Assembly (NCBI GenBank): GCA_963674735.2 | Contig: CAXXQS010000001.1 | Coordinates: forward strand, 2,176,001 to 2,240,000 | DNA length: 64,000 nucleotides | From: Myxococcota bacterium | GTDB taxonomy: Bacteria > Myxococcota_A > SURF-8 | Reading direction: 5' to 3' | In this document: positions 28,950-49,028 of the stretch, piece after piece | How positions within the stretch are numbered: the first letter of the stretch is position 1 | Layout of the letters: every line of letters begins with the position of its first letter | Translations under genes and position numbers: made by a program | Notes under the pieces: model-generated | The model's database searches: none | Told to the model about the DNA's origin: nothing | Seen by the model: the letters and a program-made list of their open reading frames with translations, nothing else

Positions 28950-29159
28950 TCAACCATTCCCGCCGCGCCGGATTCTAACTTTTCGGTTGCATTTTTCAGC
29001 CTTTTCGCGTACATCTCCCCGACGGGGCAAGCTTTAAGGGAAGATCCCGCAAGGGTATCTGCTCTTGGAGTTTGAGCAATGGGTCGGCTTGAGATTAGCT
29101 GACCATTGTGTTATATAACGGAAATTGACTTTTGTCCGGATGTACTCAAGGAGGCCCCT

Positions 29160-30479: not shown

Positions 30480-30581
30480 TGACATCCATTCATCCTGGGG
30501 GTTGTCGTAATGATGGAACGGCTGGCAATCTGTCCGTTTAGGGATATAATACCCATAAGTTCCATGATGATGGAGATTTAG

Positions 30582-31649: not shown

Positions 31650-32632
31650 AGCCACAGCCCGACCTGCACGCGCATGGCAAAGCCATTTTGTTCGGCGAAC
31701 ATGCCGTGGTGTACAACCGACCGGCTCTGGCCGTCGCCCTGCCCCACGCCATCACTCTGCAATCGCTCCGCGCAACCGAGACCGGCATCACTCTCCGCAG
31801 CCATACGGAAAATCTTCAAGGCGACGACCGCTCTGACGACTGGCTGGGCCAAGCCTTGCGTCGGCTCTCCGACCTCGTACCCGGCAAAACCGGAATGACA
31901 CTTTCCGTGGCGGTCCATCTGCCGATCAGCGCCGGGCTGGGCGGCTCGGCGGCGTTGGCGGTTTTATTGACTCGTGCGCTGGCCCACGTTCGCAACGTTC
32001 CCCTCGTTGAAAGCGAAGTCCGTCGCATTGCGCACGAGTTGGAACGCCTCTTCCACGGCACGCCTTCGGGTATCGACGACGCCCTGGCCGTCTATGGCGG
32101 TGTCTGCTGGTTTTGTCGAAACGGCACCAGCCAAACCGATCTACCCGTTAATGTTAACGCGAAACAACTCGACACCAACACCCTGCAATTGGACCTCGTC
32201 CCCCCAGCCATCGTCATCGCGTATTCCGGCCAGCCCAAAAGCACCTATGACAAGGTCGCCGGAGTCCGCGCCCGTTGGGAGGCCAACACCCCGCACATGG
32301 AAAATCTGTTCGACGCCATCGCCGACTGTGTCGAGAACGGTCTCGCCGCCTGGACAACCCACGATATGACGCGTCTCGGACAAACTCTGACCGACAACCA
32401 CCACCTGCTCCAGCAGATCGGCGTCTCGACTCCGACCCTCGACCACATGGTGGAATTGGCGTTGAGCCATGGAGCCTACGGAGCCAAATTGACCGGCGGC
32501 GGCGGCGGCGGCTGTATTCTGGCCCTGACGCCCGAACAACCGGAGGCCCTTCGCGAGGCTTTCTCCCGATCCGGCTTTCCAGCCTGGGTCATCGAACACA
32601 GCACAGGAGACCGCAAGCAATGCATGCCGTAA
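31619..32632 (+). CDS. mvk: Mevalonate kinase
   Basis: GKAILFGEHAVVY, PISAGLGGSAA, HGTPSGID and AKLTGGGGGG. Confidence 0.93.
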   Translation: MAETTPVAGIEPQPDLHAHGKAILFGEHAVVYNRPALAVALPHAITLQSLRATETGITLRSHTENLQGDDRSDDWLGQALRRLSDLVPGKTGMTLSVAVHLPISAGLGGSAALAVLLTRALAHVRNVPLVESEVRRIAHELERLFHGTPSGIDDALAVYGGVCWFCRNGTSQTDLPVNVNAKQLDTNTLQLDLVPPAIVIAYSGQPKSTYDKVAGVRARWEANTPHMENLFDAIADCVENGLAAWTTHDMTRLGQTLTDNHHLLQQIGVSTPTLDHMVELALSHGAYGAKLTGGGGGGCILALTPEQPEALREAFSRSGFPAWVIEHSTGDRKQCMP

Positions 32633-33606
32633 CCGCGCAGGCCCACGCCAATATTGCGCTCATCAAATATTGGGGTAAACGGGACAGCGAGCTGAACCTG
32701 CCCGAAACCGGGAGCCTTTCACTCACCCTATCCGATTTGACGACCACCACAACGGTACGCTTCGCCGATGACTTGAAAGCCGATGACATCAAGCTGGATG
32801 GTCGTCCCGCCGATCCCAAATCGACCAAACGCATCTCCCGTTTTCTCGATCGGGTACGCCAGCGCGCCGGAATTAAGACTTATGCCGAGGTCACAACCGC
32901 CAACAACTTCCCCACGGCCGCAGGGCTGGCGTCCTCGGCTTCGGGCTTTGCCGCCTTGACTCTGGCCGCCACCCTCGCCGCCGAATTGGATCTTTCATCC
33001 ACCGAACTGGCCGAGCTGGCACGCCTGGGTTCGGGTTCCGCCGCACGCAGCCTATCGGGTGGATTCGTCCACCTGAAAGCCGGTTCCGGTCCGCAGGGAC
33101 ACGACTTTTCCGTCCGCTCCATCGCCCCACCCGATCATATGGATCTGGCCTTGGTATTGGCGGTCAATTCGGATGCGGCCAAAGCGGTCGGATCGAGCGA
33201 AGGCATGGAACGAACCCGACGTCACTCCCCCTATTACCGTCCCTGGATCGAGACCAACCGCAGCCTGTTGCAAGAAGCACTCAGAGCGGTAAAACAGCAG
33301 GATTTCCCTACGTTGGGACGCCTCACCGAAGCTTCCTGCTTTCGGATGCACGCGGCCATGCTGGCGACCGATCCGCCCCTGATCTACTGGAACGGCGCAA
33401 CCCTGGACACCATTCGCCGTATCCACGCCCTGCGCGACAAAGGGCTGGAAGGCTACGTCACCATCGACGCCGGTCCCCACGCAAAAGTCTTATGCCGCAG
33501 GAAAGACGCCGAGGCCTGGAAAATTGAACTATCCACCTGCCCCGGAGTCGAACGCGTTCTTGTCGAAACACCCGGACCGGGCACAAAACGGATGGAGAAT
33601 TCATAG
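32620..33606 (+). CDS. mvaD: Diphosphomevalonate decarboxylase
   Basis: ANIALIKYWGK, PTAAGLASSASG, GSGSAARS and TIDAGP; start re-assigned to MHAVT at 32620. Confidence 0.95.
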   Translation: MHAVTAQAHANIALIKYWGKRDSELNLPETGSLSLTLSDLTTTTTVRFADDLKADDIKLDGRPADPKSTKRISRFLDRVRQRAGIKTYAEVTTANNFPTAAGLASSASGFAALTLAATLAAELDLSSTELAELARLGSGSAARSLSGGFVHLKAGSGPQGHDFSVRSIAPPDHMDLALVLAVNSDAAKAVGSSEGMERTRRHSPYYRPWIETNRSLLQEALRAVKQQDFPTLGRLTEASCFRMHAAMLATDPPLIYWNGATLDTIRRIHALRDKGLEGYVTIDAGPHAKVLCRRKDAEAWKIELSTCPGVERVLVETPGPGTKRMENS

Positions 33607-33607
33607 C

Positions 33608-34579
33608 ATGCGGCTGAGCTGTCCGGGAAAAAGCTTTCTACTGGGGGAATACGCGGTTCTCGAAGGTGCCCCCGCACTGGTCGCCGCCGTGAATCGACGC
33701 GCGTTCCTGGAACCGAGTCCTCAAGCCTCCCGCGCACGCCGCGACCTGGTGGCCTTTGCGCGCCAACGAGCCGCTCAGGTCTTCAACCTGCCTTTAGCGC
33801 CGCTCCTCTACCGGGCCGATACCGACGCGTTCAGTCACCAGCGGCATAAGTTGGGTCTCGGTAGTTCAGCGGCCGTCACGGTGTTGGCCGTGGCTTCCGT
33901 GGCATCCGAGAATCGATTGGACATCCACCATCATGCCGTCAGACTTCGCATCTGGGAAGCGGCTTTCGACATCCACAATGCATTTCAAAACGCCGTAGGG
34001 TCCGGTGGCGATCTGGCGGCGTCCCTCTTCGGTGGACTGCTGGTCATCAACCCGCAACCCAACACCCAAGCTCCACGGATCGAATCGCTCACGCTCGCCC
34101 AGGATGCCCACCTGTCGTTTGTCTACACAGGCAAAAGCGCCTCGACTTCCGAATTGGTGAAGACAGTCCAGGCCTTCAAGGCGCGCCATCCGGGGCGATA
34201 CAGCGAATGCATCGAAACCATGCGCGAAACGGCCAAGACCGCCCTTTCCACGAATTTATTGTCGGCTGAAAACCTGCAAACGGCTTTCGCCACATATGGT
34301 CGAGCGATGGACCATCTCGGACGCATCAGCGGCGCTCCGATCATCACGAACCCCATTCGCCAGCTCATGCAACTCGCCGATAAAACAGGTGGAACCGCCA
34401 AACCGTCAGGTGCCGGTGGCGGAGATCTGATTGTCGCGGTGTTCGACCAAGTCGATAATCTCAGCCGTTTCGAGAAAAACGCCCGAGAAAACGGCTTTTT
34501 CCCACTTTCGTTGAAACTGGACTCGGAAGGGCTTACGCAAACCGCCTCACATCAGCTCAAACAAAGGAACACGCCATGA
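33608..34579 (+). CDS. mvaK2: Phosphomevalonate kinase
   Basis: PGKSFLLGEYAVL, KLGLGSSAA, GSGGDLAAS and KPSGAGGGD; located in the mevalonate cluster. Confidence 0.88.
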   Translation: MRLSCPGKSFLLGEYAVLEGAPALVAAVNRRAFLEPSPQASRARRDLVAFARQRAAQVFNLPLAPLLYRADTDAFSHQRHKLGLGSSAAVTVLAVASVASENRLDIHHHAVRLRIWEAAFDIHNAFQNAVGSGGDLAASLFGGLLVINPQPNTQAPRIESLTLAQDAHLSFVYTGKSASTSELVKTVQAFKARHPGRYSECIETMRETAKTALSTNLLSAENLQTAFATYGRAMDHLGRISGAPIITNPIRQLMQLADKTGGTAKPSGAGGGDLIVAVFDQVDNLSRFEKNARENGFFPLSLKLDSEGLTQTASHQLKQRNTP

Positions 34580-35763
34580 CTCTGAGGCCGATATCTTCTC
34601 GTCTATCCGGCTGGCACAAACTATCACGCCGGGAACGACTTAACATACTCAAACACTGGCTGGATGATCGTCCTTTGGATCTAAGCATATTGGATTCCGG
34701 GGGGCTCTCCACCCAGCAAGCCGAATCACTGATTGAAAACGTTTGCGGCCTCTACTCGCTGCCCTTCTCCGTTGCTCCCAATTTCGTCATCAACGATGAA
34801 GATTTGTTGGTGCCGATGGTCATCGAAGAGCCTTCGGTGGTCGCCGCCGCCTCCAATGCCGCACGTCTGGCCCGTCATGGAGGCGGGTTCCATGTCGAAT
34901 CCTCCAACCCCATCATGATTGAACAAATCCAGATCACTCTGGACGATCCGGAAAAAGCCGCGCGGATCATTCTCGAACATAAAGCCGAGTTGCTCGATAT
35001 CGCCCGCCAATCGGACCCGACTCTAATCGATCTGGGTGGAGGTCCGCTGGATCTGGAGTGTCGCCAGATCGGACGCGGGGGAGAGCGCTATCTCATTTTA
35101 CATCTACTGGTGGATGTCCGGGACGCCATGGGCGCCAACACCATCAATACCATGGGTGAAGCCATCGCTCCAAAGATCGAAGCCTTGACCGGCGGAAAGG
35201 TCGGCCTTTGTATCATCAGCAATCTGGCCGACCGTCGGCTGGTAACAGTCAAGACTCGGATTCCGTTTAAATCGCTTAAAATGAAGGATTTCTCGGCGGA
35301 GCAGGTCCGGGATGGCATCGTCGCCGCGTCGCGTTTCGCCGAGCTGGATCCGTATCGCGCCGCGACCCACAACAAGGGCGTGATGAATGGAATCGACGCG
35401 GTTCTGCTGGCCACCGGGAACGACTGGCGTGCAGTGGAAGCGGGAGCCCATGCCTTTGCCGCCAAAGACGGAGGCTATCACCCTCTGTCGGTTTGGTGGA
35501 GCGGCGATAACGGCGACTTACGTGGGCGTCTGACGATCCCCATGGCGGTCGGCATCGTCGGCGGCGCGACACGCGTACAGGCCGTTGCGCGACTCGCCTT
35601 GGAATTGATCGGGGCCGACAGCGCAACCAAGCTTGCGGCCGTCGCGGCTGCGGCTGGATTAGCGAATAATCTTGCAGCCTTACGTTCTCTGGCCACGGAA
35701 GGCATACAAAAAGGCCACATGCGCCTGCATCAACGCAGTCGCCACTTAACCGATAAAAGCTGA
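34576..35763 (+). CDS. mvaA: Class II HMG-CoA reductase
   Basis: IENVCG, EEPSVVAA, DAMGAN, THNKG and GIQKGHMRLH. Confidence 0.95.
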   Translation: MTLRPISSRLSGWHKLSRRERLNILKHWLDDRPLDLSILDSGGLSTQQAESLIENVCGLYSLPFSVAPNFVINDEDLLVPMVIEEPSVVAAASNAARLARHGGGFHVESSNPIMIEQIQITLDDPEKAARIILEHKAELLDIARQSDPTLIDLGGGPLDLECRQIGRGGERYLILHLLVDVRDAMGANTINTMGEAIAPKIEALTGGKVGLCIISNLADRRLVTVKTRIPFKSLKMKDFSAEQVRDGIVAASRFAELDPYRAATHNKGVMNGIDAVLLATGNDWRAVEAGAHAFAAKDGGYHPLSVWWSGDNGDLRGRLTIPMAVGIVGGATRVQAVARLALELIGADSATKLAAVAAAAGLANNLAALRSLATEGIQKGHMRLHQRSRHLTDKS

Positions 35764-35859: not shown

Positions 35860-38319
35860 ATGCGGCAAGTGTGGAAACCCATCCTGGTAAACCTTCTGAT
35901 TTGGGGATTGCTTGCAACGGCCTGCCAGTCATCATCGGTTTCCATTGACGAACCGAAACCCCGTCTGTCCATTTCTCTGAAACTCGTATGGCCCCAAAAC
36001 ATAAAAGCCCGGCAAAAAGACGAAACAGCGACAGCCGAACGCAGCATCGTATCCTCTCCCAGCATCACACGCTTATCGGTTGTCTTGGACTTTTTGCACA
36101 ATCACCGCGACAGAGGCTTCGAAATCGATCCTCTGCGTCTGCCACCGACCCAGGTACTTGTCGACATCGTCGATAATGCCGACCGCATCAGCATCCCCTT
36201 GCCGGACACTCTGGTCGATACGGTACTTGGGCTGGGCGACGAAACGGACGCCGACTTGGATGTCGTGATTGCCGTTCAGGCCTACGCTGCAGAGTTCGAT
36301 CAACCGGTATTCTACGGATACAGCTCACCCTTCGACATCTTGGGCCGATCGGAAGAATCGGTCACGATCCCATTGGTGGAGGATACCCGAAACCTACCTC
36401 CAGTCGCATTCATCCAGGCAGCAACAAGCCGTTTCGTGGCGGGCAAAGGACTGGAATTAAACGCGGAAGCATCCCTGGACCCGGAAGACGACCCACGCCG
36501 GTATTGCTGGTTCGTGCTCGAACCCGGGAAAAGCGAACCTGAAATATTTCAATCAACCAGCATCAAGCTGGATTCCCTGACAAGTGGTGAATGGATTGCC
36601 GAGCTGCGAGTGGGTGATGCAACACTTCCACCCGATTGCAGCGAAATCCCGATTTTCGAACCACTTGAAAGCGATGATCCACTGGAATTATCCAGCCAGC
36701 ATTCACGCCTGCGCTTCGAAGCCCGCTCATGCAGCGCAGGAGCGGAATGTGAAGATGCCGGTCTGGTGTGCTGCCAGGAATCCGATACCGAAAAGACTGA
36801 TTCCCTTTCAGCAATCTGCCGGCTGCCCGACGACTGCAACGAGATTATCGGCGGGAACTTGAGCGTTTCTCCATTATCCATCGATTTCGGGGTCGTTCAG
36901 CCAAACGATCAGCTTACTCGGGAAATAACGATAACCAACGTCGGAAACAGCTCAGCCAACATCCGCGATCTGCTTTTCGAACCCGCCGACCGGCGTTTGA
37001 CCTTTGCCGGAATCGAACAAGACACACTTCCTCGATCAATCGCTCCTGAAGAATCCCTAACCGTTGAAATTTACCTAAAAGGCGATGCCACCTCCATCGG
37101 CCCTGTGGAATCCACGTTTCTGATCATGGAAGAAGACAATCCGCGCAAAGTGAAGATCAAAGGAATTGTATCGGCCGGAGCTTCCGTGTCTTTCAGACCT
37201 GACGACACCGTCATCAACTTCGGAAGCCTTGCGGCCAATGCCATTTCCGCGACAGAACTATTGCGAATTTTCAACACCTCCGGCGACGGACTTCCCCTGC
37301 AGATTATCGGCATCGACATCAACAACTTGTCGGACAAAGCTTCGGTAGATGATGAAACATCGTTCATTTTAACGAATTGGTCGGATTTCACCTCTTCCTC
37401 CATCTCCGATATCGGTTTGCCGATCACAATCGAGGCGGCTGATGTGAATAATGACAGCATTCAACCCTGGTTCGACTTATTCATCCAGTTCGCGCCCTCT
37501 CGTATCGGCGAATATCTGGCGGAGTTGGTCATTACCACCGACGCACCCAACCAATCCCGCTATGCGGTTTTGCTGCGGGGACGGGCCGAAGGTGTTGCCT
37601 CCACGCCACCCTGTTTTTACGAGCCGGAAGTTTGCGAAGGCCACCCCGATATGAAAACGATTCCGGGAACCTGCCTCTGCATGGATCAGTACGAAGCCGT
37701 CGTGGTCGACACCGACTTCTTCAACAACGGGGAATGCAGCGGTTCTGCGCGAGGTCGCATCTACAATCAGGACACCGACACCCTATCGAACATCCTCCCG
37801 ATCGATGTCGCTATCGACAACCTTGACATCTCCATTTTCGCGTGCGCTCAGGAAGAGCAACGGCCATCGGTGTTCGTCTCGTTCAATCAAGCCGCCCTCG
37901 CCTGCCGCCGGGCGGGCAAAACGCTCTGCCCCTCCGATATCTGGACGCGAGCCTGCAAAGGCTACAATGGCGCGCTCTGCGACAATCAAGCCAGTTATCC
38001 ATACGGATGTGACTATGAGCCAGGTTTGTGTAACGACATATGGCGCTGGCAAGATGAAACCGCAACACCCCGAGCCCTACCCGCCTCGGAAATGTGGGAC
38101 TGCTCCAACGATTGGCACTTTGTCAACATGAGCGGCAACGTTCGGGAATGGGCCGTAAATGAAGGAAATCCCGTGCTGCGCGGCGGATCATTCGAAGTCC
38201 AATCGGGAAGCACATTATCCTGTGATGACGAAGTGGGAGTTGAACGTCTTCAACAACAGCCGGACATCGGGTTCAGGTGTTGTGTCGAGGTTACCCAGAA
38301 TTCGGATGCGGCACGTTAA
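35860..38319 (+). CDS. Multidomain lipoprotein: PKD-like, two choice-of-anchor D/Ig-like domains, C-terminal FGE-sulfatase (C-type lectin fold) domain
   Basis: Lipobox LATAC; NLPPVA..SLDPEDD; IDFGVV/INFGSL...ITNVG repeats; MSGNVREW, RGGSF and GFRCC. Confidence 0.75.
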   Translation: MRQVWKPILVNLLIWGLLATACQSSSVSIDEPKPRLSISLKLVWPQNIKARQKDETATAERSIVSSPSITRLSVVLDFLHNHRDRGFEIDPLRLPPTQVLVDIVDNADRISIPLPDTLVDTVLGLGDETDADLDVVIAVQAYAAEFDQPVFYGYSSPFDILGRSEESVTIPLVEDTRNLPPVAFIQAATSRFVAGKGLELNAEASLDPEDDPRRYCWFVLEPGKSEPEIFQSTSIKLDSLTSGEWIAELRVGDATLPPDCSEIPIFEPLESDDPLELSSQHSRLRFEARSCSAGAECEDAGLVCCQESDTEKTDSLSAICRLPDDCNEIIGGNLSVSPLSIDFGVVQPNDQLTREITITNVGNSSANIRDLLFEPADRRLTFAGIEQDTLPRSIAPEESLTVEIYLKGDATSIGPVESTFLIMEEDNPRKVKIKGIVSAGASVSFRPDDTVINFGSLAANAISATELLRIFNTSGDGLPLQIIGIDINNLSDKASVDDETSFILTNWSDFTSSSISDIGLPITIEAADVNNDSIQPWFDLFIQFAPSRIGEYLAELVITTDAPNQSRYAVLLRGRAEGVASTPPCFYEPEVCEGHPDMKTIPGTCLCMDQYEAVVVDTDFFNNGECSGSARGRIYNQDTDTLSNILPIDVAIDNLDISIFACAQEEQRPSVFVSFNQAALACRRAGKTLCPSDIWTRACKGYNGALCDNQASYPYGCDYEPGLCNDIWRWQDETATPRALPASEMWDCSNDWHFVNMSGNVREWAVNEGNPVLRGGSFEVQSGSTLSCDDEVGVERLQQQPDIGFRCCVEVTQNSDAAR

Positions 38320-38834: not shown

Positions 38835-39017
38835 TCCAATCCTCCGCGTTGCGATAAACATAACAAGTTTTTCAAACAAACGAAATAATTTGAGTTGAAT
38901 AATCCGACATCACAGGCTTCCAATCTTTCATTCAGCTTGTATTCTCCGCATATTACGAGTAGAACGTAAGTGTTCAACAGAGTTAGGACCGATCGAGAAT
39001 CCGGTAAATGGGAGGGC

Positions 39018-42000
39018 ATGGCCATGCGTAACACAAACGCAAAGCTAAGCATTTGGGTTTTACTTATCGTTTTCCTTGCGATTTTCTCCGCTTGCGGCGG
39101 ATCGGGCGAAGATGATGAGCGTGATCGGGATAAGGACCCCGACGATGGGGATACGGATGATGAACTCACACCCGGATCCTGCGATGCGTCGTTCACACTC
39201 GATGCGTCGGACGACGAGACCGCACGCAAAGAATTTTTGCTCACATTTACGGTCGGCGATTGCAACGATATCGACGAAATCGGCGTCATGAACGGCGATC
39301 GCTTTTACAAGGCAACCGCCCTCACCGCCGACCGTTTTCGTCGCTACGTCCCGATGGAGGAAGGCACCAACGACCTTTCCGTTGTTTTGTGGGATTCCGG
39401 CAACCACGAATTTACCAGCGATTCCATCGAGGTTACCTATTCGCCGCAAGCCCCCCAAGCCACAGCTTCATCGGGATACATCCACGGAAGCGTCATCAAT
39501 GAAACCAGCCAAGCTCCCATCTCGGAGGCAACCGTCTATGTCCGTGATATCGATGGCGAAATGGAAAGTGACACAGAGGGACACTTTGTTTTCCCAACAC
39601 CCGGTACGGGACGCTTTCTCGTCACGGTGGAAAAAGACGGATTTACGTTGGGTCAGGCTTGGATCGGCGTCCGCACCCGCTCGCACGCCTCGCTGAAACC
39701 ACTTCACCTGGTTCCCTTAGACAGCAAAACAACCCGCATCACGGCAGCAGAGGGTGGTGAGATGGAGAACAGCAGCGGCGACATCACCATGTCGGTGCCA
39801 TCCGGGGCACTGAGGGCCGATGTCGATGTGTCCGGGTTGAGTTTTCCCAGTTATCGAAGCCTACCGGCCGAGCTACCCGATTCTTCCGGCTGGACTCAGG
39901 CGCTCGAATTGTTTCCGGAAGGTGTCCACTTCGATAAACCGGCGTTAGTGCGGCAAGAAAATATCAACGGCTTTCCTCCCGGATTCAAAGTTCCGGCCGG
40001 TTATTACAATCGCGATAAAGGCGCATGGGAACCGGAAGGGATGGCCACGGTCAGCGAGGACGGTCAGTGGCTGGAGTTCGAAGCCACTCATTTCTCTCCT
40101 TTCGACCTCAATCTGCCCATCAATCCGCGCGATCCGGCCGACAGTGAAACCGGAGACCAGGATGACTGTAACAAAGGCACGCGCGGTTCCTCGATCGTTG
40201 ATGATTTGGGAGGTCAGCTCACGCTGTACCACCCCATCAGCCGGTACATCGAACAAAACAACCCCCAGACTCTTTACCTCCAGTACAACAGCGGAGCCGC
40301 AGCCGGAGAAATCGATGTTCTGATCCCCATCATGGCCAACGGAGGCCAGGACGTTCAGCGCCTGGAGGCCGATCTCGGTTTCATGGGACATTATCGTCAC
40401 TTGGCGGGTGAAGCCGATGGCGGAGAAGGATACTGGGCCGGAGCCCGTTTCCCCACCGACACCCCGGATGGAAACCCGATTCCGAACGGACTGTATCCGG
40501 TGAGCTTCGACCTGACTAAATTCCAAACCTCCACCTACATGACCGCCGACTACTTCGGAGCTGGCGGTTTGAAAGATTCGGGCGTTCCCACCCGTGAAGC
40601 CCTGCCTTTCACATCACGCAAGGCGGTTCCGGCGCTGATCAACGACAGACGGGAAAGTCCATTCGGAGCCGGGTGGAGCCTGGACGTTATGGAAGAGCTG
40701 GTTTTCGATGAAGAAACCGGCTATGCCGTCTGGTACAGAGGCGACCGACGGCCGCTAGCACTACTCTCGGGACTCCCCACCGGCGATCCGATCGTCCTGG
40801 ACAATTTTGATTACTACGAAATCAAACAGCATGCCTATGATAATCAAGGACGGCTCTACATCCTGATGGAAAGCGGCGAGATCTACCGTGCTCCCTCGCG
40901 TGATCAGGTCGCATCCGCCACCTTGCTGGCGACGATTGAAGACACCGAATACCTCATTTTCAACGATTCCGACCTCTATGCCATGACGGATGACTCCGAA
41001 CTGATCAGCATTGACGAAGCGGGCGACACCACCTTGCTGTGGAACCTCAACGAAAAGTATGTCTTAGACCAGTTCTGGGGCACCGATGAACTCAGTTCGA
41101 TAAAAATGCTGTTTGTCGAAACGGGAGCCGTGATCGATCAAAACGGCTATCTGTGGGTTCTGGGCATCGATTCTCAAGTGGGGGAAAACCAAAGCAGTTT
41201 GTTACCACTGGTGATTCGCGTCGACATCAGCGGTAGCGCTCCGGTTTTCGAGTACTACCAGATCGCCCGGCTCAGCGACTGGTGGGGGCCGGTCAGTCTA
41301 AGTTACGACCGGGTGGAACACGCCCTGTATTACGTGTTTTATGGCGAAAGCCAGCTTCGACGCTTCGATATTCTGGGCCTCAATGAAAGTTTCATAACCT
41401 GGAACGACGACTTCAACACCGAATCCGAGGGCACACTCGTACGCGGATCGGGCAGCGACAGTTACTTTCTCAGTGAATACAAGCTCCTCCGCATATCTCC
41501 CGAAGGTCTCATCACCTCCCTGGCGCAGGACGAAATCGACCAGGCTTGGGCTTTCGGGATGGAAATCCGGCAAGTCGCCCTTCAACCCGATGGGACGGCC
41601 AGCTTCATCGCCGTCAACCAGGATGATGATGGAGTCTTGACCCAAGCGGATTACCAACGCGCAGTCGACATCGAAAAACTGATCGTCGCCACACGCTCGG
41701 ATAGCGGCGCAACATTGGCCGTGAGGGGTGAGACTCACACTTTCGACGCCGATGGCCGTATTGTGGCCGTTACGGACGCTCAGGGGCATAGTTCGTCCTA
41801 CACCTACGACGGCACCCACCTCGTCTCCTACACCAGCCCCCTCGGTCATACCACGACCTTCGACTATCCGAACCCGACCAGCACCGTGATTACCGACCCG
41901 GCAGGCGTGACGCGCAGTTTGTCACTAGATGCCCAAAACCACTTGACTCAAATCAGCGAATCCGGTGGCTCAACCCTTAATTTCAGCTACGATGCAAAGG

Positions 42001-44618
42001 GACATCTGATTCAACGTAGTGGAACAACCGGAACCATCGACTACAGCTTCGATGACAACGGATCCATCGAACAAATCGAGCTCGACACCGGAGAAGTCCG
42101 CAATTTCCGCAGTCCGATGCAATCCGCCTATCCCGACAAAATCGTCACCTCCGAGAACGCCTGCGCGGAAATGATCGACGGGGAAGACCATCTGCATGTA
42201 ACCTGCTACGGAGACAACGGCGAACCGGCCAGTTACAGTCTCAACGGTGAAACTCTAACCATTCAGCGGCAGTTCATTCCCATCCAGGGCGATCAGATCA
42301 TCACGATGAGCAGCGGTGACCAAGAAGCGGTACACACTCAGGTGGACAACCGAGGTCGGATTGTCGAACAGCGCTTGTGGGGAACGACCGTTCTACAGCA
42401 AAGTTTCGATGATGAATGGGGCGAATACGACTTGAGTTATTACGCGGAAGGCTGTTCGGTTGACTTTTACGACGACTATACAAGCTATTATTGCAACGGC
42501 GTCTCAACTTACATCTACCATGATGAAAACGGTTTTCCGACGGAAATCTGGGACGATCAGGACAATGTCTATACGATCACCTGCGATATGGCTGGAAACG
42601 TGACGAAAATCACCGATCCGGAGGATGGAGAAACGATACTGGTCCGTGACGATTTAGGCCGGATCGTCTCACGCACCGATCCCCTCAACCGTGAAACGAC
42701 TTATACCTACAATCCAGGTGGTGAAATGACCGGCCTGACGGATGACGCCGGTGCCAGTTTCAGCGCTGAAATCCAGCGAAGCGCCACCTGCGACGCCTGC
42801 GAAACCTCCGGCGTGGATATGCTGGGCACCATCACCGATCCTTTCGACGAAGATTGGAACGCGACCATTCGATCCGACGGTCGCATCGCGGCGCTGATCA
42901 TGCCCAACGGAAACCGGATAGATTACAATTACAACGGTAATCGACTGCTAAGTGGCGTCTCCGCAGCCGGACAGGAAGCGACACTCGACTACGATGGTCA
43001 TAACCAGCCAAGCAACATCACGCTCGGTGGCGTGAACACCGCTTATACGTACACGGCCCAAGAACGCTTGCACTCCGCCGAATCGACAGACTTTCTGCTG
43101 ACTCGAGACTGGGATCTGGAAAACCAGGTTGTGATAGAAAGCCTTACCGATAAAGCCACCGGCGACACACGTAACTTGACCATCGGTTTCGACCCGACCC
43201 AAGGTGTCGATACCTCTGTCACATTCGATGATGAAACCGTCTGGAATTTGGACTTCAATTACCTGGAAGACTGGGAACTGAGCGAAGAAGGCGGTGTCAG
43301 TATCGCGGTCAGCGCCCGAAACGGCATGTTTGAGGATATCTATATCGAAAATGGCGACGGCCAAACCGTCCTGCGCGAGAGCGTCTCATTCGATTCCCTG
43401 CAGCGCATCGAATGGATTTACGGCGAGACCCAGTCGGACTGGGCAACCCTCACCTACACCTATCCCGACGGAAGCAATCAGCCAAGCCGTGCGGAATGGG
43501 ACATCCCCGGCTTCGACAATTGGAGCTTCGGCTACAACGGCATGGGTCGGCTCACCTCCATGACCGGCTCCGCCAATCTGACTTACACTTACGATAAAGC
43601 CGGACGCCTGGCATCCAGCAACTACGCCGGGAGCTTGACTTACAACACAGCCTGGCAGGTTCTATCGAATTCACTCTACACATACACCTACGATGCTGCC
43701 GGTCGCCGAGCAACCCGCACGAACCTCGGAACAAGCGAATTTTGGCGCTACACCTACAACGCCTTCGATCAACTTGTAACGGTCGAGAAATTCGCGACTT
43801 CATCAGCAAGCAGCCCGACGTCCACCGTTTCGCTGGTTTACGATCCGATCGGTCGCCTGGCGCGAATCGATCAAGATGGTGACATCACGCAATATCAATG
43901 GTATGAATATACGCTCGTGGGCGAATACGACGGTTCGGGCGATTTGCTGCGCCGTTACATTCCGGCCTATCATTCGGACGGCCTGGCGGTTTTACAACAA
44001 GGCGGCCGAAATTATTACGCCCTGCTCGATCGTAACGGGTCGATACTGCGGCTTGTCAACGACAGCGGCCAAACACAGGCCTCGTATCGTTATGACGCAT
44101 ATGGCCGAGTGCTAGCCGCCTCCGGAACTTTGGCCCTGCAACCGCGCCGCTTTGCAGGAGCGTTGTGGCTGGAATCGGTTGGCTTGTATTACCTCCGCTT
44201 CCGCTATCTCGATCCCGAGATCGGCCAGTTCATCAGCCGGGATGCGAAGTGGAAACTGAAACTTGAACCTTACATGTACTGCGATGGCCGTCCATTCCGC
44301 TGCACCGATCCTTTGGGTCTGGAAGGCGAAGCCAGCCAAGCCGGAAACTTGGCTCGTGGATCGATCTGGACTTCAGCCAAAGCGGCAGCGGGACCGGTGG
44401 GTAACATCATCGATTTGGGCGAAGGCTTGAGCGGCTACAGACCCGGCGATCGTCGCCATAACGCCAGCCACGGCATGCGAAAGGTGGCCAGCATCACGTT
44501 TTTAGATAAAAGCCCGACCTATCGTCGCGCGATGGACAACATGGACAGCTTCTTCAACTTATTCGATGATGACGACGACGATGATGACGACGATGACGAG
44601 GATGACCCCTGCGATTAG
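39018..44618 (+). CDS. Lipoprotein-anchored teneurin-like RHS/YD-repeat protein
   Basis: Lipobox FSAC; carboxypeptidase-regulatory domain; ZU5-like region ending THFS; PFGAGWSL; propeller-like region; YD repeats; RHS core YRYDAYG...RYLDPEIGQFISRD...DPLGL; 98-aa C-terminal extension. Confidence 0.88.
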   Translation: MAMRNTNAKLSIWVLLIVFLAIFSACGGSGEDDERDRDKDPDDGDTDDELTPGSCDASFTLDASDDETARKEFLLTFTVGDCNDIDEIGVMNGDRFYKATALTADRFRRYVPMEEGTNDLSVVLWDSGNHEFTSDSIEVTYSPQAPQATASSGYIHGSVINETSQAPISEATVYVRDIDGEMESDTEGHFVFPTPGTGRFLVTVEKDGFTLGQAWIGVRTRSHASLKPLHLVPLDSKTTRITAAEGGEMENSSGDITMSVPSGALRADVDVSGLSFPSYRSLPAELPDSSGWTQALELFPEGVHFDKPALVRQENINGFPPGFKVPAGYYNRDKGAWEPEGMATVSEDGQWLEFEATHFSPFDLNLPINPRDPADSETGDQDDCNKGTRGSSIVDDLGGQLTLYHPISRYIEQNNPQTLYLQYNSGAAAGEIDVLIPIMANGGQDVQRLEADLGFMGHYRHLAGEADGGEGYWAGARFPTDTPDGNPIPNGLYPVSFDLTKFQTSTYMTADYFGAGGLKDSGVPTREALPFTSRKAVPALINDRRESPFGAGWSLDVMEELVFDEETGYAVWYRGDRRPLALLSGLPTGDPIVLDNFDYYEIKQHAYDNQGRLYILMESGEIYRAPSRDQVASATLLATIEDTEYLIFNDSDLYAMTDDSELISIDEAGDTTLLWNLNEKYVLDQFWGTDELSSIKMLFVETGAVIDQNGYLWVLGIDSQVGENQSSLLPLVIRVDISGSAPVFEYYQIARLSDWWGPVSLSYDRVEHALYYVFYGESQLRRFDILGLNESFITWNDDFNTESEGTLVRGSGSDSYFLSEYKLLRISPEGLITSLAQDEIDQAWAFGMEIRQVALQPDGTASFIAVNQDDDGVLTQADYQRAVDIEKLIVATRSDSGATLAVRGETHTFDADGRIVAVTDAQGHSSSYTYDGTHLVSYTSPLGHTTTFDYPNPTSTVITDPAGVTRSLSLDAQNHLTQISESGGSTLNFSYDAKGHLIQRSGTTGTIDYSFDDNGSIEQIELDTGEVRNFRSPMQSAYPDKIVTSENACAEMIDGEDHLHVTCYGDNGEPASYSLNGETLTIQRQFIPIQGDQIITMSSGDQEAVHTQVDNRGRIVEQRLWGTTVLQQSFDDEWGEYDLSYYAEGCSVDFYDDYTSYYCNGVSTYIYHDENGFPTEIWDDQDNVYTITCDMAGNVTKITDPEDGETILVRDDLGRIVSRTDPLNRETTYTYNPGGEMTGLTDDAGASFSAEIQRSATCDACETSGVDMLGTITDPFDEDWNATIRSDGRIAALIMPNGNRIDYNYNGNRLLSGVSAAGQEATLDYDGHNQPSNITLGGVNTAYTYTAQERLHSAESTDFLLTRDWDLENQVVIESLTDKATGDTRNLTIGFDPTQGVDTSVTFDDETVWNLDFNYLEDWELSEEGGVSIAVSARNGMFEDIYIENGDGQTVLRESVSFDSLQRIEWIYGETQSDWATLTYTYPDGSNQPSRAEWDIPGFDNWSFGYNGMGRLTSMTGSANLTYTYDKAGRLASSNYAGSLTYNTAWQVLSNSLYTYTYDAAGRRATRTNLGTSEFWRYTYNAFDQLVTVEKFATSSASSPTSTVSLVYDPIGRLARIDQDGDITQYQWYEYTLVGEYDGSGDLLRRYIPAYHSDGLAVLQQGGRNYYALLDRNGSILRLVNDSGQTQASYRYDAYGRVLAASGTLALQPRRFAGALWLESVGLYYLRFRYLDPEIGQFISRDAKWKLKLEPYMYCDGRPFRCTDPLGLEGEASQAGNLARGSIWTSAKAAAGPVGNIIDLGEGLSGYRPGDRRHNASHGMRKVASITFLDKSPTYRRAMDNMDSFFNLFDDDDDDDDDDDEDDPCD
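44565..44606 (+). repeat. GAT/GAC trinucleotide tract encoding D11-E-D-D
   Basis: Seen directly; mixed synonymous codons. Confidence 0.9.
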
Positions 44619-44678
44619 CACCGCGTTCTCGCCAAAACGGTAGCATTGGAGTTCTTGAGCAACAACAGGATGTAATCG

Positions 44679-46805
44679 ATGGATTGGCCGCAATCGGCTT
44701 CCGGGCACCCGGATCATAGACAAAACGGGTTCTATCTCGTCCTTTTGGCGGCCCTTCCCTTTCTCATCTTCGCGGATGCTCTTTTTTCGCCTTTAAAAGC
44801 CATTGGCGGCGATAATCTGCAGTTATACTGGCCCGACCTGGTCTATTTGTTCAACAGCCTGCGCGACGGCCACTTTCCGCTCTGGGATCCCTACGAACGC
44901 GCCGGAGATCCGTTTATCAGCGACCCGCAAAACGGAATCTTTTATCCGCTCAACTATCTGTTCATCGCCGCAGCCATGCTTTTGGGAAAGCTTTCGTTTA
45001 CCTTGCAGGAAATCAAGGTTCTCGTGCATCTTGCCATCGCGGGGACGGGGATGTTCGTGTTTTTGCAGCGCAAACTGAAACTCGCCCCCAGCGCCGCCTT
45101 CATCGGCGCTCTCGTGTTTCTTCTACAGCCCTATTTTGCCGGACACATTCGCCATATCCTGCTTCTCCCCGCCGCTTACCTGCCCTGGATTCTGTTCACC
45201 TTGCACGCCATGCGTCACCAAGACTCTTTCCGCGCGCTCGGTGCGTTCAGCCTTCTATGCGGCATCGTCCTGGTGGCCGGAAGCCCGCCGGGAGCATGGT
45301 ATACGTTGTTGTTCGCGGCTTTGTATGCGCTCTTTCTGCTGAGCCAACCCTCACCCGTCATCGGCCGTTTGCGCTTTGTTGGAATGGGGATTTGCGGCCT
45401 CCTGTGCGCCTTAATGATCAGCTGTGTGGTCTGGCTTCCGGCTTTGCAACACATTCCGTTCTCGGTCGTCGAAAACCGCAGTTTCGACTACCTTTCCAGC
45501 ATGAGCCTACGGCTGCACGAACTAAAGCATCTCGTCATCGCCGGCCCCACCAGTGAAGAGCGCTGGGTGTATATCGGCTTTGTACCGGTTCTACTGGCGC
45601 TGGGCGCTTGTGTTCAACGACGATTACGCCATCAAGTTTTGTTCTGGTGGCTAGTGGCCACCTTCTTTCTGCTGGTCCTGGTAGGCCGCGAGCTTCCCGC
45701 TTTTCGCGTTTTAAGCGCTTTGCCGGGATTCGACCTCTTCCGCCACCCAGTGCGTTATATCCTCCTTCCCGGAGCGGCTCTGTCCATCTTGGCGGGTATC
45801 GGTCTGGATACCCTGCAAAAGGCGCTGTACTCACGCCTCAATCCTGTTTCGGTTTCGGCACGGATGGCAAGATGGGGAATCCCGATCGGCGTCTCGGTCC
45901 TGATCATGGCAACATTGGCCCCTCCCATGCGCACCATCGGCCTGCAAACCCTCAAGCAGTCGCCCAGCGCCACCAATGCAAAAGCGATTGAAATGAACGG
46001 CCTCGCCAGAGATTGGAGAATGCTGGACGAAGGGTACATCAGCAACGGTCCGGGCGACCGCCTGTCGCTGAGAGATTTCAGGGGATATGCCACGAATTTC
46101 GTGTATTTCCGCTGGGCTAAAGTCCGACAGGCGATGAGGCACCGTCCGGAATTGCTCAGTTTGTACAATGTCCGCTACTACGGTCCTCATCCAACCGATT
46201 TTCACGCCACGGTTCCTCGTATCGGGAACAAACCTGGTTGGAGCCTCAAATCTCCCGGTCTTTACGAAAACCCCACCGCCTGGCCCGCCGCGTTCTGGAC
46301 ACCGGCTGCCAGACTGGTCAGAGACCACAAGCAAGCTCTGCAACAACTTAAATATACAAAGACTTTCTCGGCTGAAGCCATTCTGGAACGCAACCAGCTC
46401 CCGTCGAGCGACATCCCTCAACCCCTACTCTCTCATACAAAAAAGAAAAGCCCCGAACCTGTTACGATCAAACCGGCCAAAATCATCTCGTTGTCATCCA
46501 ATATGGCCGATGTTGAAGTCAACGCCGCTTCAGTCGGGCTGTTGATCGTCAACGAAACCTGGTATCCCGGTTGGACAGCTTGGCTAGGCGAACGAAAATT
46601 GGAAGTCTTTCCGGCTAATTACCTGCAGCGAGCAGTCGTTGTCCCGGCGGGTCGACACCGAGTCCACTTCGAATTCCAACCTGATAACCTGACCGCGACT
46701 CTGATTATCAGTGTGCTGGGTCTCTTAGCCGCAATCTTGCTGCTTTTCATGGGAAAGAGATTCCATTCGGCGAAAATTCAGTCTTCCATGCACGTGTCCC
46801 GTTAG
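44679..46805 (+). CDS. YfhO family membrane protein (GT-C-type glycosyltransferase-like)
   Basis: PLWDPY..AGDPF..DPQ..FYP; many TM helices; WYPGWTA and ANYLQRAV C-terminal motifs. Confidence 0.85.
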   Translation: MDWPQSASGHPDHRQNGFYLVLLAALPFLIFADALFSPLKAIGGDNLQLYWPDLVYLFNSLRDGHFPLWDPYERAGDPFISDPQNGIFYPLNYLFIAAAMLLGKLSFTLQEIKVLVHLAIAGTGMFVFLQRKLKLAPSAAFIGALVFLLQPYFAGHIRHILLLPAAYLPWILFTLHAMRHQDSFRALGAFSLLCGIVLVAGSPPGAWYTLLFAALYALFLLSQPSPVIGRLRFVGMGICGLLCALMISCVVWLPALQHIPFSVVENRSFDYLSSMSLRLHELKHLVIAGPTSEERWVYIGFVPVLLALGACVQRRLRHQVLFWWLVATFFLLVLVGRELPAFRVLSALPGFDLFRHPVRYILLPGAALSILAGIGLDTLQKALYSRLNPVSVSARMARWGIPIGVSVLIMATLAPPMRTIGLQTLKQSPSATNAKAIEMNGLARDWRMLDEGYISNGPGDRLSLRDFRGYATNFVYFRWAKVRQAMRHRPELLSLYNVRYYGPHPTDFHATVPRIGNKPGWSLKSPGLYENPTAWPAAFWTPAARLVRDHKQALQQLKYTKTFSAEAILERNQLPSSDIPQPLLSHTKKKSPEPVTIKPAKIISLSSNMADVEVNAASVGLLIVNETWYPGWTAWLGERKLEVFPANYLQRAVVVPAGRHRVHFEFQPDNLTATLIISVLGLLAAILLLFMGKRFHSAKIQSSMHVSR

Positions 46806-46880
46806 CTTCATTTGACCGACCCTCCTACTTTCTGTTATTCTGGGTGTTCTGCAGTATAACCGGTCAAGGAGACGGCAAGC

Positions 46881-49028
46881 ATGAATGCAAGGCGACGATG
46901 GCGGTCAACTGTCGTATTCAGTTTGATGACCATCGTCCTCGCCGTGATGTGCCTGAACTGCTCAAGAAACGCGTCTTCCGAAGACCAGAAGACAAGCGAT
47001 AGCGATTCGAATCCTTCCCAATTAGCCAAACCAATGTACGTTGCAAAGGGAGATCTCGCGGATATCCTGGCCCGCGATGAACTTCGCGTTCTGATCCCCA
47101 AACGTAACAATCGGCGTTTTCTGCCTCGCGGCGGTCTCCCTATCGAGGCCGAAATGGAGCTGGTCGAATCGTTTGCCAAAACCCAAGGCATTCAAATTGA
47201 ATGGATTCATACCGACAATCATCGCGATCTTTTACCCAACTTACTCGCAGGTAAAGGAGACCTGGTAGCCGCATCGTTGACGGTGACACCGGCACGAAAA
47301 GAAAAAGTCGCATTCTCCGTTCCGACGGCCGTCATCAAGGAACAGGTTGTCGTACGAGCGAACGACCCTAACCCACCCAAATCCATAGAGGAACTGGTCG
47401 GTCGCCAAATTGCGGTGCGACGATCCTCATCCTATTGGGACACCTTGACGGAGTTGAAGAAAACCCATCCGGGCCTTCGCTTCGGCGCCGTTCCGGAAAC
47501 AATCGATACGCAAGAAATCCTCGGTGGCGTCTCCTCGGGTAAATATGATATCACCATTGCCGACAACAACCTGCTTCGCGCCGTAATGGCCTATGATTAC
47601 AACCTAAAGCCGTCGTTCGATCTCTCCGGAGAACGCGCTACGGCCTGGGCTGTGCGCCCGGATGCCCCTGAGTTGCTCAAAGCACTTGACCGCTTTCTGA
47701 ATCGCGAAAAGCTTGCGACTCACTCACCCAAACGATATCGAGACGACTTTCCGCAGCTTCTACAAAGAAAGACCTTGCGCCTGATCACACGAAACAGCGC
47801 CGCCACTTATTTCCTATGGCGCGGTAAACTGCTCGGCTTCGAATATGAATTGATTCGACGTTTCGCCAAAAAACATGGCATGCGCGTCGAAGTGGTCGTC
47901 CCCCCGGCCCGTGGTGATTTAATCCCCTGGCTGACAGAAGGACGGGGAGACCTCATCGCAGCCGCCATGACGGTAACCGACGAACGCCGGAAGCTCGAAT
48001 CGATTGCACCGACAACACCTTACAACATGGTTTCGGAGATTTTAGTCGCTCGTGCCGATGATGCCAAAAAAATCCAGTCTTTAAAAGACCTCGAAGACCG
48101 AAAGATCGTGGTCCGGCGCAGCTCCAGTTATTGGTCCACACTCGAAAAGCTGAAATCGGAAGGCGCGGGATTCCGGTTGGTTCAGGCTCCGGAAGAACTC
48201 GAAACCGAGGAAATCATCGCACGTGTAGCAAGCGGAGAATACGATCTGACCCTGGCGGATAGCCATATCCTGGATATCGAACTAACTTGGCGCAGCGATG
48301 TCGACGCCGCGTTCCCACTCGGCGACCCGGTTCCGCAAGCTTGGTTCGTTCGCGCCGATAACCCGCAACTACTTGCCGCATTAAACCGATTTATTTCCGA
48401 AGAATACAAGCAAACGACTTACAACATTCTCTACAAAAAATATTTCAAGAATCAGCGCAAAATCCGTAAACACATTCAGTTTCGCGCGAAATCGGTCGGT
48501 CAGCTTTCCCCATATGACGATCTGGTCAAGAAATTTGCGGCCCGTTACGGTTTCGATTGGCGCTTGATCGTGGCTCAGATGTTCGAGGAAAGTCAGTTCG
48601 ACCCCAACGCCCAGTCCTTCGCCGGAGCGGTCGGCCTGATGCAAGTCCTTCCTCGCACCGGCCGCCAATATGGATTCAAGAATCTGCATCACCCCGAGAC
48701 CTCTATTCACGCCGGAACACGATATCTGGCCTATCTACGCGATAGGCTGGACAGCGAGTTATCTGTCAAAGATCGCATGTGGATGGCCTTGGCCGCCTAC
48801 AATGCCGGATATGGACATCTATTTGACGCTCGCCGTATCGCAGAGCAAAAAGGATGGAACCCCAACCGCTGGTTCGATCATGTCGAAAAAGCGATGCTGC
48901 TGTTGTCCCGGCCCGCTTACGCCCGCCGCAGTCGCTACGGCTATGCACGCGGCCATGAAACCGTTCGTTATATCAGAGAAATACGACGACGCTATAATGC
49001 CTACCTGAACGCTGCACCCGTCGATTAG
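46881..49028 (+). CDS. mltF: MltF-type lytic murein transglycosylase with tandem substrate-binding domains
   Basis: Two PBP2-like repeats (GDL..A..TVT, RRSSSYW) plus SLT domain (EESQF, GLMQV, AAYNAG, ET..Y). Confidence 0.85.
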   Translation: MNARRRWRSTVVFSLMTIVLAVMCLNCSRNASSEDQKTSDSDSNPSQLAKPMYVAKGDLADILARDELRVLIPKRNNRRFLPRGGLPIEAEMELVESFAKTQGIQIEWIHTDNHRDLLPNLLAGKGDLVAASLTVTPARKEKVAFSVPTAVIKEQVVVRANDPNPPKSIEELVGRQIAVRRSSSYWDTLTELKKTHPGLRFGAVPETIDTQEILGGVSSGKYDITIADNNLLRAVMAYDYNLKPSFDLSGERATAWAVRPDAPELLKALDRFLNREKLATHSPKRYRDDFPQLLQRKTLRLITRNSAATYFLWRGKLLGFEYELIRRFAKKHGMRVEVVVPPARGDLIPWLTEGRGDLIAAAMTVTDERRKLESIAPTTPYNMVSEILVARADDAKKIQSLKDLEDRKIVVRRSSSYWSTLEKLKSEGAGFRLVQAPEELETEEIIARVASGEYDLTLADSHILDIELTWRSDVDAAFPLGDPVPQAWFVRADNPQLLAALNRFISEEYKQTTYNILYKKYFKNQRKIRKHIQFRAKSVGQLSPYDDLVKKFAARYGFDWRLIVAQMFEESQFDPNAQSFAGAVGLMQVLPRTGRQYGFKNLHHPETSIHAGTRYLAYLRDRLDSELSVKDRMWMALAAYNAGYGHLFDARRIAEQKGWNPNRWFDHVEKAMLLLSRPAYARRSRYGYARGHETVRYIREIRRRYNAYLNAAPVD

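Follow-up and report, generated by a model that had tools for sequence, protein, structure and literature searches.

A predicted teneurin-like lipoprotein of Myxococcota with a ZU5-fold domain, a conserved HFS motif and a clade-conserved C-terminal tail

A gene at 39018..44618 on the plus strand of a 64,000-nucleotide (nt) stretch of Myxococcota DNA (the window; assembly GCA_963674735.2, contig CAXXQS010000001.1, positions 2,176,001 to 2,240,000) encodes an RHS-repeat protein and raises the question of what kind of protein this is, how its capsule could leave the cell that makes it, and at what its C-terminal tail would be directed when no immunity gene was found beside it. The explanation that best accounts for the locus as a whole, to which we give a probability of roughly 0.8, takes the gene product for a bacterial teneurin-like protein (TLP) that is membrane-tethered, builds a capsule, cleaves itself, joins plug and cargo by a disulfide and carries a cargo not meant for kin. 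An earlier reading of the same DNA (the initial annotation) had ranked the protein as a candidate for an undescribed system, a claim that has to be given up, because the architecture, the lipoprotein targeting in Myxococcota, the double autoproteolysis and the encapsulated C-terminus have all been published for TLPs (PMC13018210, Nat Commun 2026). Three points stand out: the published TIP domain has a ZU5 fold with a probable third cut, the plug-to-cargo disulfide is likely general, and one clade has a conserved cargo with no immunity gene found beside it.

Architecture and family membership

TLPs have been described as consisting of adhesion domains, TTR, TIP, FN-plug, NHL, YD shell and a toxic tail of ~15 kDa, with TTR and TIP upstream of the plug in 96% of them, and they occur in >20% of Myxococcota species (PMC13018210). 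The whole-protein profile of the window protein matched the PDB entries named 'Teneurin-like protein' (9pt5, 9ifo) in the shell and core. For the N-terminal half, residues 140-620 (481 amino acids, aa) were aligned with 19 homologous segments, and the resulting 20-sequence alignment was used both for an AlphaFold2 (AF2) model and for a profile. This profile matched the solved TLP (9ifo/9pt5) across TTR, TIP and FN-plug (E 1.7e-37), the TTR-TIP part falling on residues 388-624 of the solved protein (E 4.9e-23) and the plug on residues 671-965 (E 1.4e-9); a single-sequence search of the PDB with aa 140-620 returned nothing, the solved TLP being reached by the 20-sequence profile only. The AF2 model had a mean pLDDT of 80.4, with values >90 over its first 230 residues. 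Foldseek searches with it placed teneurins at the top (E 4.9e-9 to 1.2e-7), ahead of ankyrin ZU5 (3ud2, E 6.1e-5) and carboxypeptidase TTR domains, and the teneurin match in VIA reached Z 14.6.

The features of the locus are given below, with residues numbered for the 1866-aa form that begins at 39018 (1864-aa database numbering plus two) and with the domain limits of the N-terminal half taken from re-alignment of the AF2 model in VIA.

39018..39095, plus strand: signal peptide with lipobox (IFSA-C26), judged by eye from the sequence
39096..39179, plus strand: acidic low-complexity tether, aa 27-54, from composition (13/28 residues D or E)
39180..39452, plus strand: putative Ig-like domain, aa 55-145, a label of the initial annotation; C55 and C82 invariant
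39474..39719, plus strand: transthyretin-like (CarboxypepD_reg/TTR) domain, aa 153-234, from Pfam and VIA
39720..40118, plus strand: ZU5-fold domain (published as TIP), aa 235-367 (234-367 in VIA), from AF2, VIA and profile
40095..40190, plus strand: 32-aa stretch S360-S391 between the two N-terminal candidate cuts, with C384, from conservation
40191..40802, plus strand: FN-plug, aa 392-595, from VIA, profile and a weak DUF6531 match
40803..41687, plus strand: divergent NHL-like (propeller) region, aa 596-890, from collinearity and hhalign
41688..44090, plus strand: YD/RHS shell, aa 891-1691, from RHS_repeat, AF2 and Foldseek
44091..44321, plus strand: RHS-associated core with aspartyl-protease site R1729/D1742/D1764 and predicted cut after L1768, from TIGR03696
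44322..44615, plus strand: 98-aa C-terminal domain (cargo) with a basic 82-aa part, a 14-residue acidic run and a terminal P-C1865-D, from sequence
44619..44678, no strand: 60-nt spacer between the RHS gene and a YfhO-like gene, with neither an immunity-type open reading frame (ORF) nor a terminator-like hairpin

The TTR fold was clear in VIA (1qmu, Z 13.8, root-mean-square deviation (rmsd) 1.2 over 80 residues; 5aq0, Z 13.4), and the Pfam match to CarboxypepD_reg at aa 155-211 scored 31.2 bits, slightly below the cut-off of 32.3. Modelled residues 371-595 (model numbering 232-456) superposed on the plug regions of teneurins (6vhh, Z 11.0; 9g41, Z 10.8). The NHL-like region was collinear with the TEN_NHL region of the homologue P0005 and relatives, and hhalign of six members of the orthologue clade against 12 TEN_NHL-bearing relatives gave 95.7-95.8% (E 7e-9 to 9e-9), with the same outcome after trimming of the flanks (95.8%, E 6.8e-9, 166 columns) and 0.1% for a reversed control, which suggests that aa 596-890 are homologous to TEN_NHL regions.

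Six RHS_repeat matches (Pfam, E 5.2e-37) lay in the shell, and the AF2 model of aa 880-1866 (mean pLDDT 78.9, shell mostly 80-95) showed a continuous all-beta shell. Foldseek matched the shell to the TLP 9ifo (E 2.4e-42, TMq 0.62), to teneurins (TMq 0.58-0.68), to Rhs cores of the type VI secretion system (T6SS; E ~1e-43 to 1e-36, TMq 0.40-0.55) and, much more weakly, to Tc toxins (E 1.7e-26, TMq 0.38), so that by TM-score the modelled shell is closest to teneurins and the TLP. Finally, the core was matched by TIGR03696 at aa 1692-1768 (58.4 bits), with the motif SRD...DPLGL, of which DPLGL is encoded at 44307-44321. The teneurin-like layout that the initial annotation had proposed (TTR, ZU5, plug, propeller-like region, YD shell) is borne out by the AF2, VIA and Foldseek matches to teneurins and by the hhalign match to TEN_NHL.

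The open frame that holds the gene (38970..44618, plus strand) is the longest of its region, with 1866 uninterrupted codons, and the features that had been listed for 39018-44618 were all present at their coordinates. Its first ATG is at 39018 and its second at 39024, while a Shine-Dalgarno-like run, GGGAGGG (39010-39016), lies 2 nt before the former and 8 nt before the latter. Because of this spacing, and because the database record of the identical protein (1864 aa) begins there, the true start is probably 39024. A hydrophobic h-region is followed, as judged by eye, by a lipobox (...LAIFSA-C26), whose Cys is kept in all six clade members, in agreement with the lipoprotein tether claimed earlier; the window protein is a predicted SPII-type lipoprotein, as are Gram-negative TLPs, including those of Myxococcota (PMC13018210). 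Beyond the tether, C55 and C82 of the putative Ig-like domain were invariant both in close orthologues and in the six-member clade alignment.

The ZU5 fold of TIP and the candidate cleavage sites

The domain between TTR and plug superposed on ankyrin ZU5 domains (3f59, Z 12.8, rmsd 2.3, 122/149 residues, model residues 95-228; 4d8o, Z 13.2), although the Pfam ZU5 match was below threshold (E 0.0062, 17.2 bits against a cut-off of 21). This fold bears out the ZU5-like region that had been noted as ending in T-H-F-S (aa 357-360, nt 40086-40097); H358-F359|S360, encoded at 40089-40097, correspond to model residues 219-221, at the C-terminal end of the ZU5 sandwich. When 169 homologous domains from the proteins collected in this analysis were aligned locally, the column held HFS in 116 of them, HFT in 10, HFC in three, RFS in seven, other residues in 15 and a gap in 18, such that HF[STC] was present in 129/169, with Asp at +5 in 130/169, and all three residues of the window motif were invariant in the clade (6/6). 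Conservation had been named beforehand as a check on the motif, and judged by this alignment HFS is under selection and not there by chance.

By count on the profile alignment, H684-F685-S686 of the solved TLP are aligned with H358-F359-S360. On account of the N-terminal profile alignment to the solved TLP, the published TIP domain is the ZU5-fold domain, with HFS in both. In an exhaustive search with aa 225-440, 998 cluster representatives reached E<=1e-3, and 224 of these also E<=1e-10; among the 150 matches listed, most were ~1,500-4,000 aa long and had YD-repeat motifs. Across a sample of the phylum, the ZU5-like domain was matched in 100/401 genomes.

The domain was also seen in smaller proteins. 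One is a predicted lipoprotein of 366 aa (G000:C2:14364-15464; L039 1364-2464, minus strand; signal ending ...VVCAG-C), in which a ZU5-like domain that closes with N-H-F-S precedes a Cys-rich C-terminal domain. Many genomes of the phylum also have open frames of ~360-460 aa that match the ZU5-like domain. Within the phylum, RHS proteins are therefore not the only ones to carry the ZU5/HFS module.

In PIDD, Nup98, CARD8 and NLRP1, documented self-cleavage takes place at an HFS or SF|S motif that closes a ZU5-like domain (PMC3210808). For RHS toxins, Zhang et al. 2012 (PMC3482391) predicted N-terminal ZU5 domains that act as releasing peptidases, and the ZU5-fold domain of the window protein has such a position. 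Among titles and abstract openings on ZU5 together with teneurins, bacterial toxins were treated only in two comparative genomics papers of 2012, one of them that of Zhang et al., and a term search found neither 'ZU5' nor 'HFS' in the main text of PMC13018210.

Two further sites are predicted from the solved TLP of Bacillus inaquosorum (PDB 9ifo/9pt5), in which one cut follows the RHS core motif and another splits the FN-plug at G723|S724 (PMC13018210). C384 and S392 of the window protein were at least 90% conserved in the 20-sequence alignment and invariant in the six clade members, and the profile alignment placed C384...S391|S392 on C719...G723|S724. Because the published plug site aligns with S391|S392, the window protein likely has three self-cleavage sites and not two. 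The initial annotation had named two, at HFS and at the core; both are present and conserved, while its count was probably one short, the plug site having been missed.

The core site is intact. With the motif of the RHS protease (a conserved Arg, two Asp and PxxxxDPxGL) and the residue roles taken from PMC13018210, the spacing R1729-D1742-D1764-L1768 equals the published R2103-D2116-D2140-L2144 minus two residues between the Asp, and R1727, R1729, D1742, D1764 and G1767 were invariant in 6/6 clade members, in keeping with the core motif recorded earlier. Other residues invariant in 6/6 were C26, H358, F359, S360, D363, N365, C384, G390 and S392.

The solved TLP also encloses its cleaved tail in the shell and joins it to the plug by a disulfide (PMC13018210). 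In the three close orthologues 11 Cys of the window protein were invariant, one of which (C26) is the lipid site, and eight of which are near one another in sequence and by this proximity make four likely pairs (55/82, 1146/1159, 1258/1261, 1755/1762), leaving over C384 and C1865. The latter, a penultimate Cys preceded by Pro, was invariant in 5/5 aligned tails, in which the position of an acidic or charged linker followed by P-C-x was conserved as well. By analogy with the solved TLP, C384 and C1865 probably form a plug-to-cargo disulfide. Such a bond predicts odd Cys counts in tails; among 28 proteins with HFS...C...S and a clear tail, at least one tail Cys was present in 28/28, the count was odd in 26/28, and 16 tails had exactly one, which suggests that the plug-to-cargo disulfide is widespread in TLPs.

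Cargo tail and genomic neighbourhood

Published work treats TLPs as effectors paired with immunity proteins, a downstream gene being present after 'almost all' of them, and the 92-aa tail of the solved TLP permeabilises E. coli if exported (PMC13018210). On this precedent, the window protein could be a kin-directed polymorphic toxin with a small antibacterial, perhaps membrane-active, tail, whose immunity gene lies elsewhere, is very small or was missed. The window tail is of similar size and its first half is Gly/Ala-rich. However, the tail is not polymorphic. Against the two closest orthologues (P0003/P0004) it was 48-50% identical, compared with 40-41% for the YD shell, 63-65% for ZU5, 74-76% for the RHS core, 50-52% for the FN-plug and 32-36% for the NHL-like region, which was the least conserved part and fell to 15-18% in distant orthologues. 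In the distant member P0052, the tail was 40% identical and the shell 24%, and P0054 and P0199 retain the tail. A profile of five tails, run among candidates of 225-2000 aa, gave six matches, all from the clade. Outside the clade, among the other TLP-like proteins collected, tails were shared in 0/41 pairs at 50-60% shell identity (taken over the last 300 shell residues) and in 5/133 pairs at 40-50%, whereas inside the clade they were shared in 3/3. The tail is conserved across the orthologue clade and not hypervariable, so that of the earlier expectation for this C-terminus the size (98 aa, as in TLPs) held up and the variability among homologues did not.

Neither the word-indexed search nor the tail-profile search found the tail on other scaffolds, which again speaks against a kin-directed toxin, as does the lack of a hydrophobic segment (maximum Kyte-Doolittle 19-residue mean 0.66). 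The word-indexed search returned the self-match only, and the ESM Atlas gave no match above 0.77. With the tail alone, Pfam returned just NAP (E 0.19) and PBP1_TM (E 0.28), which we rejected as identities of the tail, since both matches lie in its C-terminal third and are attributed to the acidic run there.

Elsewhere, two arrays of short ORFs (~150-360 aa; G000:C2:39898-43199, i.e. L037 3898-7199, minus strand, and G000:C1:785765-789590, i.e. L038 13766-17590, plus strand) consist of members that each encode an Rhs core and a tail differing from one ORF to the next, with no full-length RHS shell gene nearby. Their cores are near-identical to each other and 27-30% identical to the window core, and share no DNA similarity with it. 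Several of their tails have an acidic stretch and then a Cys two residues from the end (C-D-Y, C-E-Y, C-Q-W), like P-C-D of the window protein. Recombination with the genome's six orphan Rhs core-plus-tail modules was considered as a source of tail diversity and set aside on the grounds of low core identity and missing DNA similarity.

The neighbourhood was compared in three contexts. In the window, no ORF of at least 55 aa was found in or around the 60-nt gap. Next to the closest orthologue (L008, 45% identity, in a genome, G036, of the same family as the window's genome), a convergent, opposite-strand gene for a metallo-beta-lactamase (MBL)-fold hydrolase lies 390 nt away, with no ORF >61 aa between. 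In L021, uvrA is downstream, and a 73-aa ORF without Pfam match (7672-7893, plus strand) begins 30 nt after the orthologue's stop and overlaps the start of uvrA; this ORF is a point in favour of a kin-directed toxin. The three contexts nevertheless have different downstream neighbours and no small ORF in common, and a conserved or plausible immunity gene stood next to the TLP gene in 0/3, which agrees with the absence of a small downstream immunity ORF, and the start of a YfhO-like gene after 60 nt, recorded by the initial annotation. In sum, we consider a kin-directed toxin unlikely.

The conserved tail, the lack of an immunity gene and the stand-alone position of the gene in three unrelated neighbourhoods would also suit a protein that is not a toxin, its clade having been repurposed for adhesion or cell-cell signalling like metazoan teneurins, with the tail as a structural filler or a released signal peptide. 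The Discussion of PMC13018210 leaves a communication role for TLPs open, and the shell is nearest to teneurins by TM-score. Against it, the RHS protease residues are invariant, which would be needless in a pure scaffold, and mammalian teneurins lack the motif, their C-terminus leaving the shell uncleaved (PMC13018210). Moreover, no receptor or partner is identifiable, and the low conservation of the surface-facing NHL-like region is unlike that of a binding surface. A role of this kind seems distinctly improbable to us. A decaying, non-functional copy, i.e. a toxin that has degenerated through erosion of both tail and immunity gene, could draw on the acidic homopolymer run at the C-terminus, the NHL-like region too divergent for Pfam and the missing immunity gene, but is hardly credible given the intact 1866-codon frame, catalytic and cleavage residues that are all invariant (6/6), a tail better conserved than the shell, and an acidic or charged linker and P-C-x kept in position.

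Gene order differed in all three contexts. Upstream of the RHS gene in the window are a mevalonate-pathway operon, an Ig plus FGE-sulfatase protein and a divergent CYTH gene. The operon (29106-35763, plus strand) looks complete, encoding HMG-CoA synthase, two GHMP kinases, diphosphomevalonate decarboxylase and HMG-CoA reductase, together with an FMN-dependent dehydrogenase-type protein that is probably a type 2 isopentenyl diphosphate (IPP) isomerase. The directly upstream gene (35860-38319, plus strand) encodes 819 aa with HYDIN/VesB-like Ig and a C-terminal FGE-sulfatase (formylglycine-generating enzyme-like) domain and is not kept beside the orthologues. Downstream (44679-49028, plus strand) lies the gene for the YfhO-like protein, a GT-C membrane protein of 708 aa, and after it that for an MltF-like lytic transglycosylase with two SBP_bac_3 domains and an SLT domain. 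Co-transcription of the RHS and YfhO-like genes is possible, since no terminator-like hairpin lies between them; a functional link between the two was rejected because other neighbours take this place in both L008 and L021. A scan for promoters and terminators performed at chance (four promoter-like hits against 4.8 expected, eight terminator-like against 9.6), with none in the spacer.

A release model and comparison with known systems

Under the reading of the window protein as a tethered TLP with a non-kin cargo, the protein would be exported by Sec, lipidated at C26 and held at the membrane by the acidic linker, and its body would fold into Ig-like domain, TTR, ZU5/TIP, FN-plug, NHL-like region and YD shell. 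By homology to the solved TLP, a cut after L1768 by the RHS aspartyl protease (R1729, D1742, D1764) would then free the 98-aa tail inside the shell. A second cut, in the plug loop at S391|S392, would correspond to the one shown at G723|S724. The ZU5 fold together with the conserved HFS predicts a third cut, at F359|S360, by which the capsule would come free of the Ig-TTR-ZU5 stalk that carries the lipid. Where other proteins of ZU5/FIIND or Nup98 type are cleaved, the halves remain non-covalently joined until disturbed. The released cargo would consist of two chains, a 32-aa peptide and the 98-aa domain, joined by the C384-C1865 disulfide. Delivery would proceed without a T6SS. Since the cargo is conserved and no immunity gene was found, it would probably be aimed at a target that the producer lacks, and we infer that this could be foreign prey or eukaryotes, as opposed to kin. 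The cargo might travel by the exchange of outer-membrane lipoproteins, as is known for lipoprotein toxins of Myxococcus. The Discussion of PMC13018210 states that the exit of TLPs from the cell surface, the opening of the shell and the passage of the cargo to its target are unknown for the family.

Several points weigh against this reading. All cuts in the window protein are predicted from homology or fold only, and the cuts that PMC13018210 reports in its main text for the solved TLP are those of plug and core only; HF|S cleavage in TLPs is thus a prediction, and the ankyrin-type ZU5 domains that the model resembles do not cleave. Surface exposure is one candidate orientation, with a periplasmic one as the alternative. 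Neither the FN-plug model nor NHL or TEN_NHL matched the window protein in the Pfam scan, and the propeller shape of aa 596-890 is putative. The C384-C1865 link rests on analogy, the two residues lying in separate models, and odd tail Cys counts were also frequent in the motif-negative group (20/28), which is not a clean control, the proteins being mutually related. AF2 drew the tail as four helices at low confidence (pLDDT 34-55). P0053, a clade member, has an unrelated tail. Finally, only three contexts were compared, an immunity gene could lie elsewhere in the genome, and the 73-aa ORF of L021, to which nothing corresponds in either the window or L008, is a possible gene.

Bacterial TLPs are the ancestors of animal teneurin receptors, and with TIP recognised as a module of ZU5 fold whose HFS is strongly conserved, the family gains a concrete, testable release step. 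With its conserved tail and no immunity gene, the clade of the window protein departs from the published pattern of hypervariable tails and effector/immunity pairs and misfits the model proposed for TLPs on that basis. It is therefore a natural place to seek a non-kin target or a non-toxin role, functions of a kind that could have given rise to adhesion receptors. A wider picture, in which an immunity-less branch of TLPs uses HF|S release and a two-chain, disulfide-linked cargo for non-kin or as a signal, and in which third cut and disulfide are general in TLPs, is suggested in its general part by the HFS of the solved TLP and the odd Cys in 26/28 tails; we put it forward tentatively and with some doubt.

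Of the known systems, Tc toxins (TcB-TcC; 4o9x, 4igl) share with the window protein an RHS cocoon, a propeller and an auto-cleaved, enclosed tail. They differ in that the window protein is a single chain and matches them much more weakly in structure, and the SpvB/TcB N-terminal domain was not matched in the Pfam scan. Tc toxins are aimed at eukaryotes, and we know of no immunity gene for them.

T6SS Rhs effectors (RhsA 7q97, Tse5 8cp6, RhsP 8h8a, Salmonella bongori Rhs 8qjc) have the same closed YD shell, and likewise a C-terminal aspartyl-protease cut, an N-terminal cut near the plug and an encapsulated tail (PMC13018210). In contrast to them, the window protein has extra TTR, ZU5 and NHL domains, predicted Sec/lipoprotein export in place of PAAR, VgrG or prePAAR, and no immunity gene found. 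Pfam matched no PAAR or VgrG domain in it, and no TssC/VipB match was obtained in the 94.4%-complete genome, results that uphold the proposed independence from T6SS.

The domains of PIDD, NLRP1, CARD8 and Nup98 (ZU5/FIIND/Nup98) are, like the window domain, beta-sandwiches with a C-terminal H-F-S, whereas the best structural matches of the window domain are non-cleaving ankyrin ZU5 domains, and its Pfam ZU5 score is below the cut-off. Metazoan teneurins (6fb3, 8fia, 8r50) share the super-fold of TTR, FN-plug, NHL and YD shell, and provided the best shell TM-scores (0.58-0.68) as well as the top matches for the N-terminal model; however, they are type II transmembrane proteins with neither ZU5/TIP nor the RHS protease motif, while the window protein is a predicted lipoprotein with both.

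The closest comparison is with TLPs themselves (9ifo/9pt5). In these, the tail is hypervariable and an immunity gene follows, whereas the window protein has a clade-conserved tail and none was found downstream; its tail has no sequence similarity to any tested TLP tail, its NHL region is too divergent for Pfam, and its N-terminal adhesion modules are reduced to one putative Ig-like domain. Otherwise, the window protein is an ordinary member of a published family, solved in 2026, with which it shares the domain order TTR, TIP, FN-plug, NHL, YD shell and short C-terminal domain, the predicted SPII targeting of Myxococcota members, the cut site of the RHS core, the Cys and Ser of the plug, HFS in TIP, and a tail of ~92-98 aa with a C-terminal Cys.

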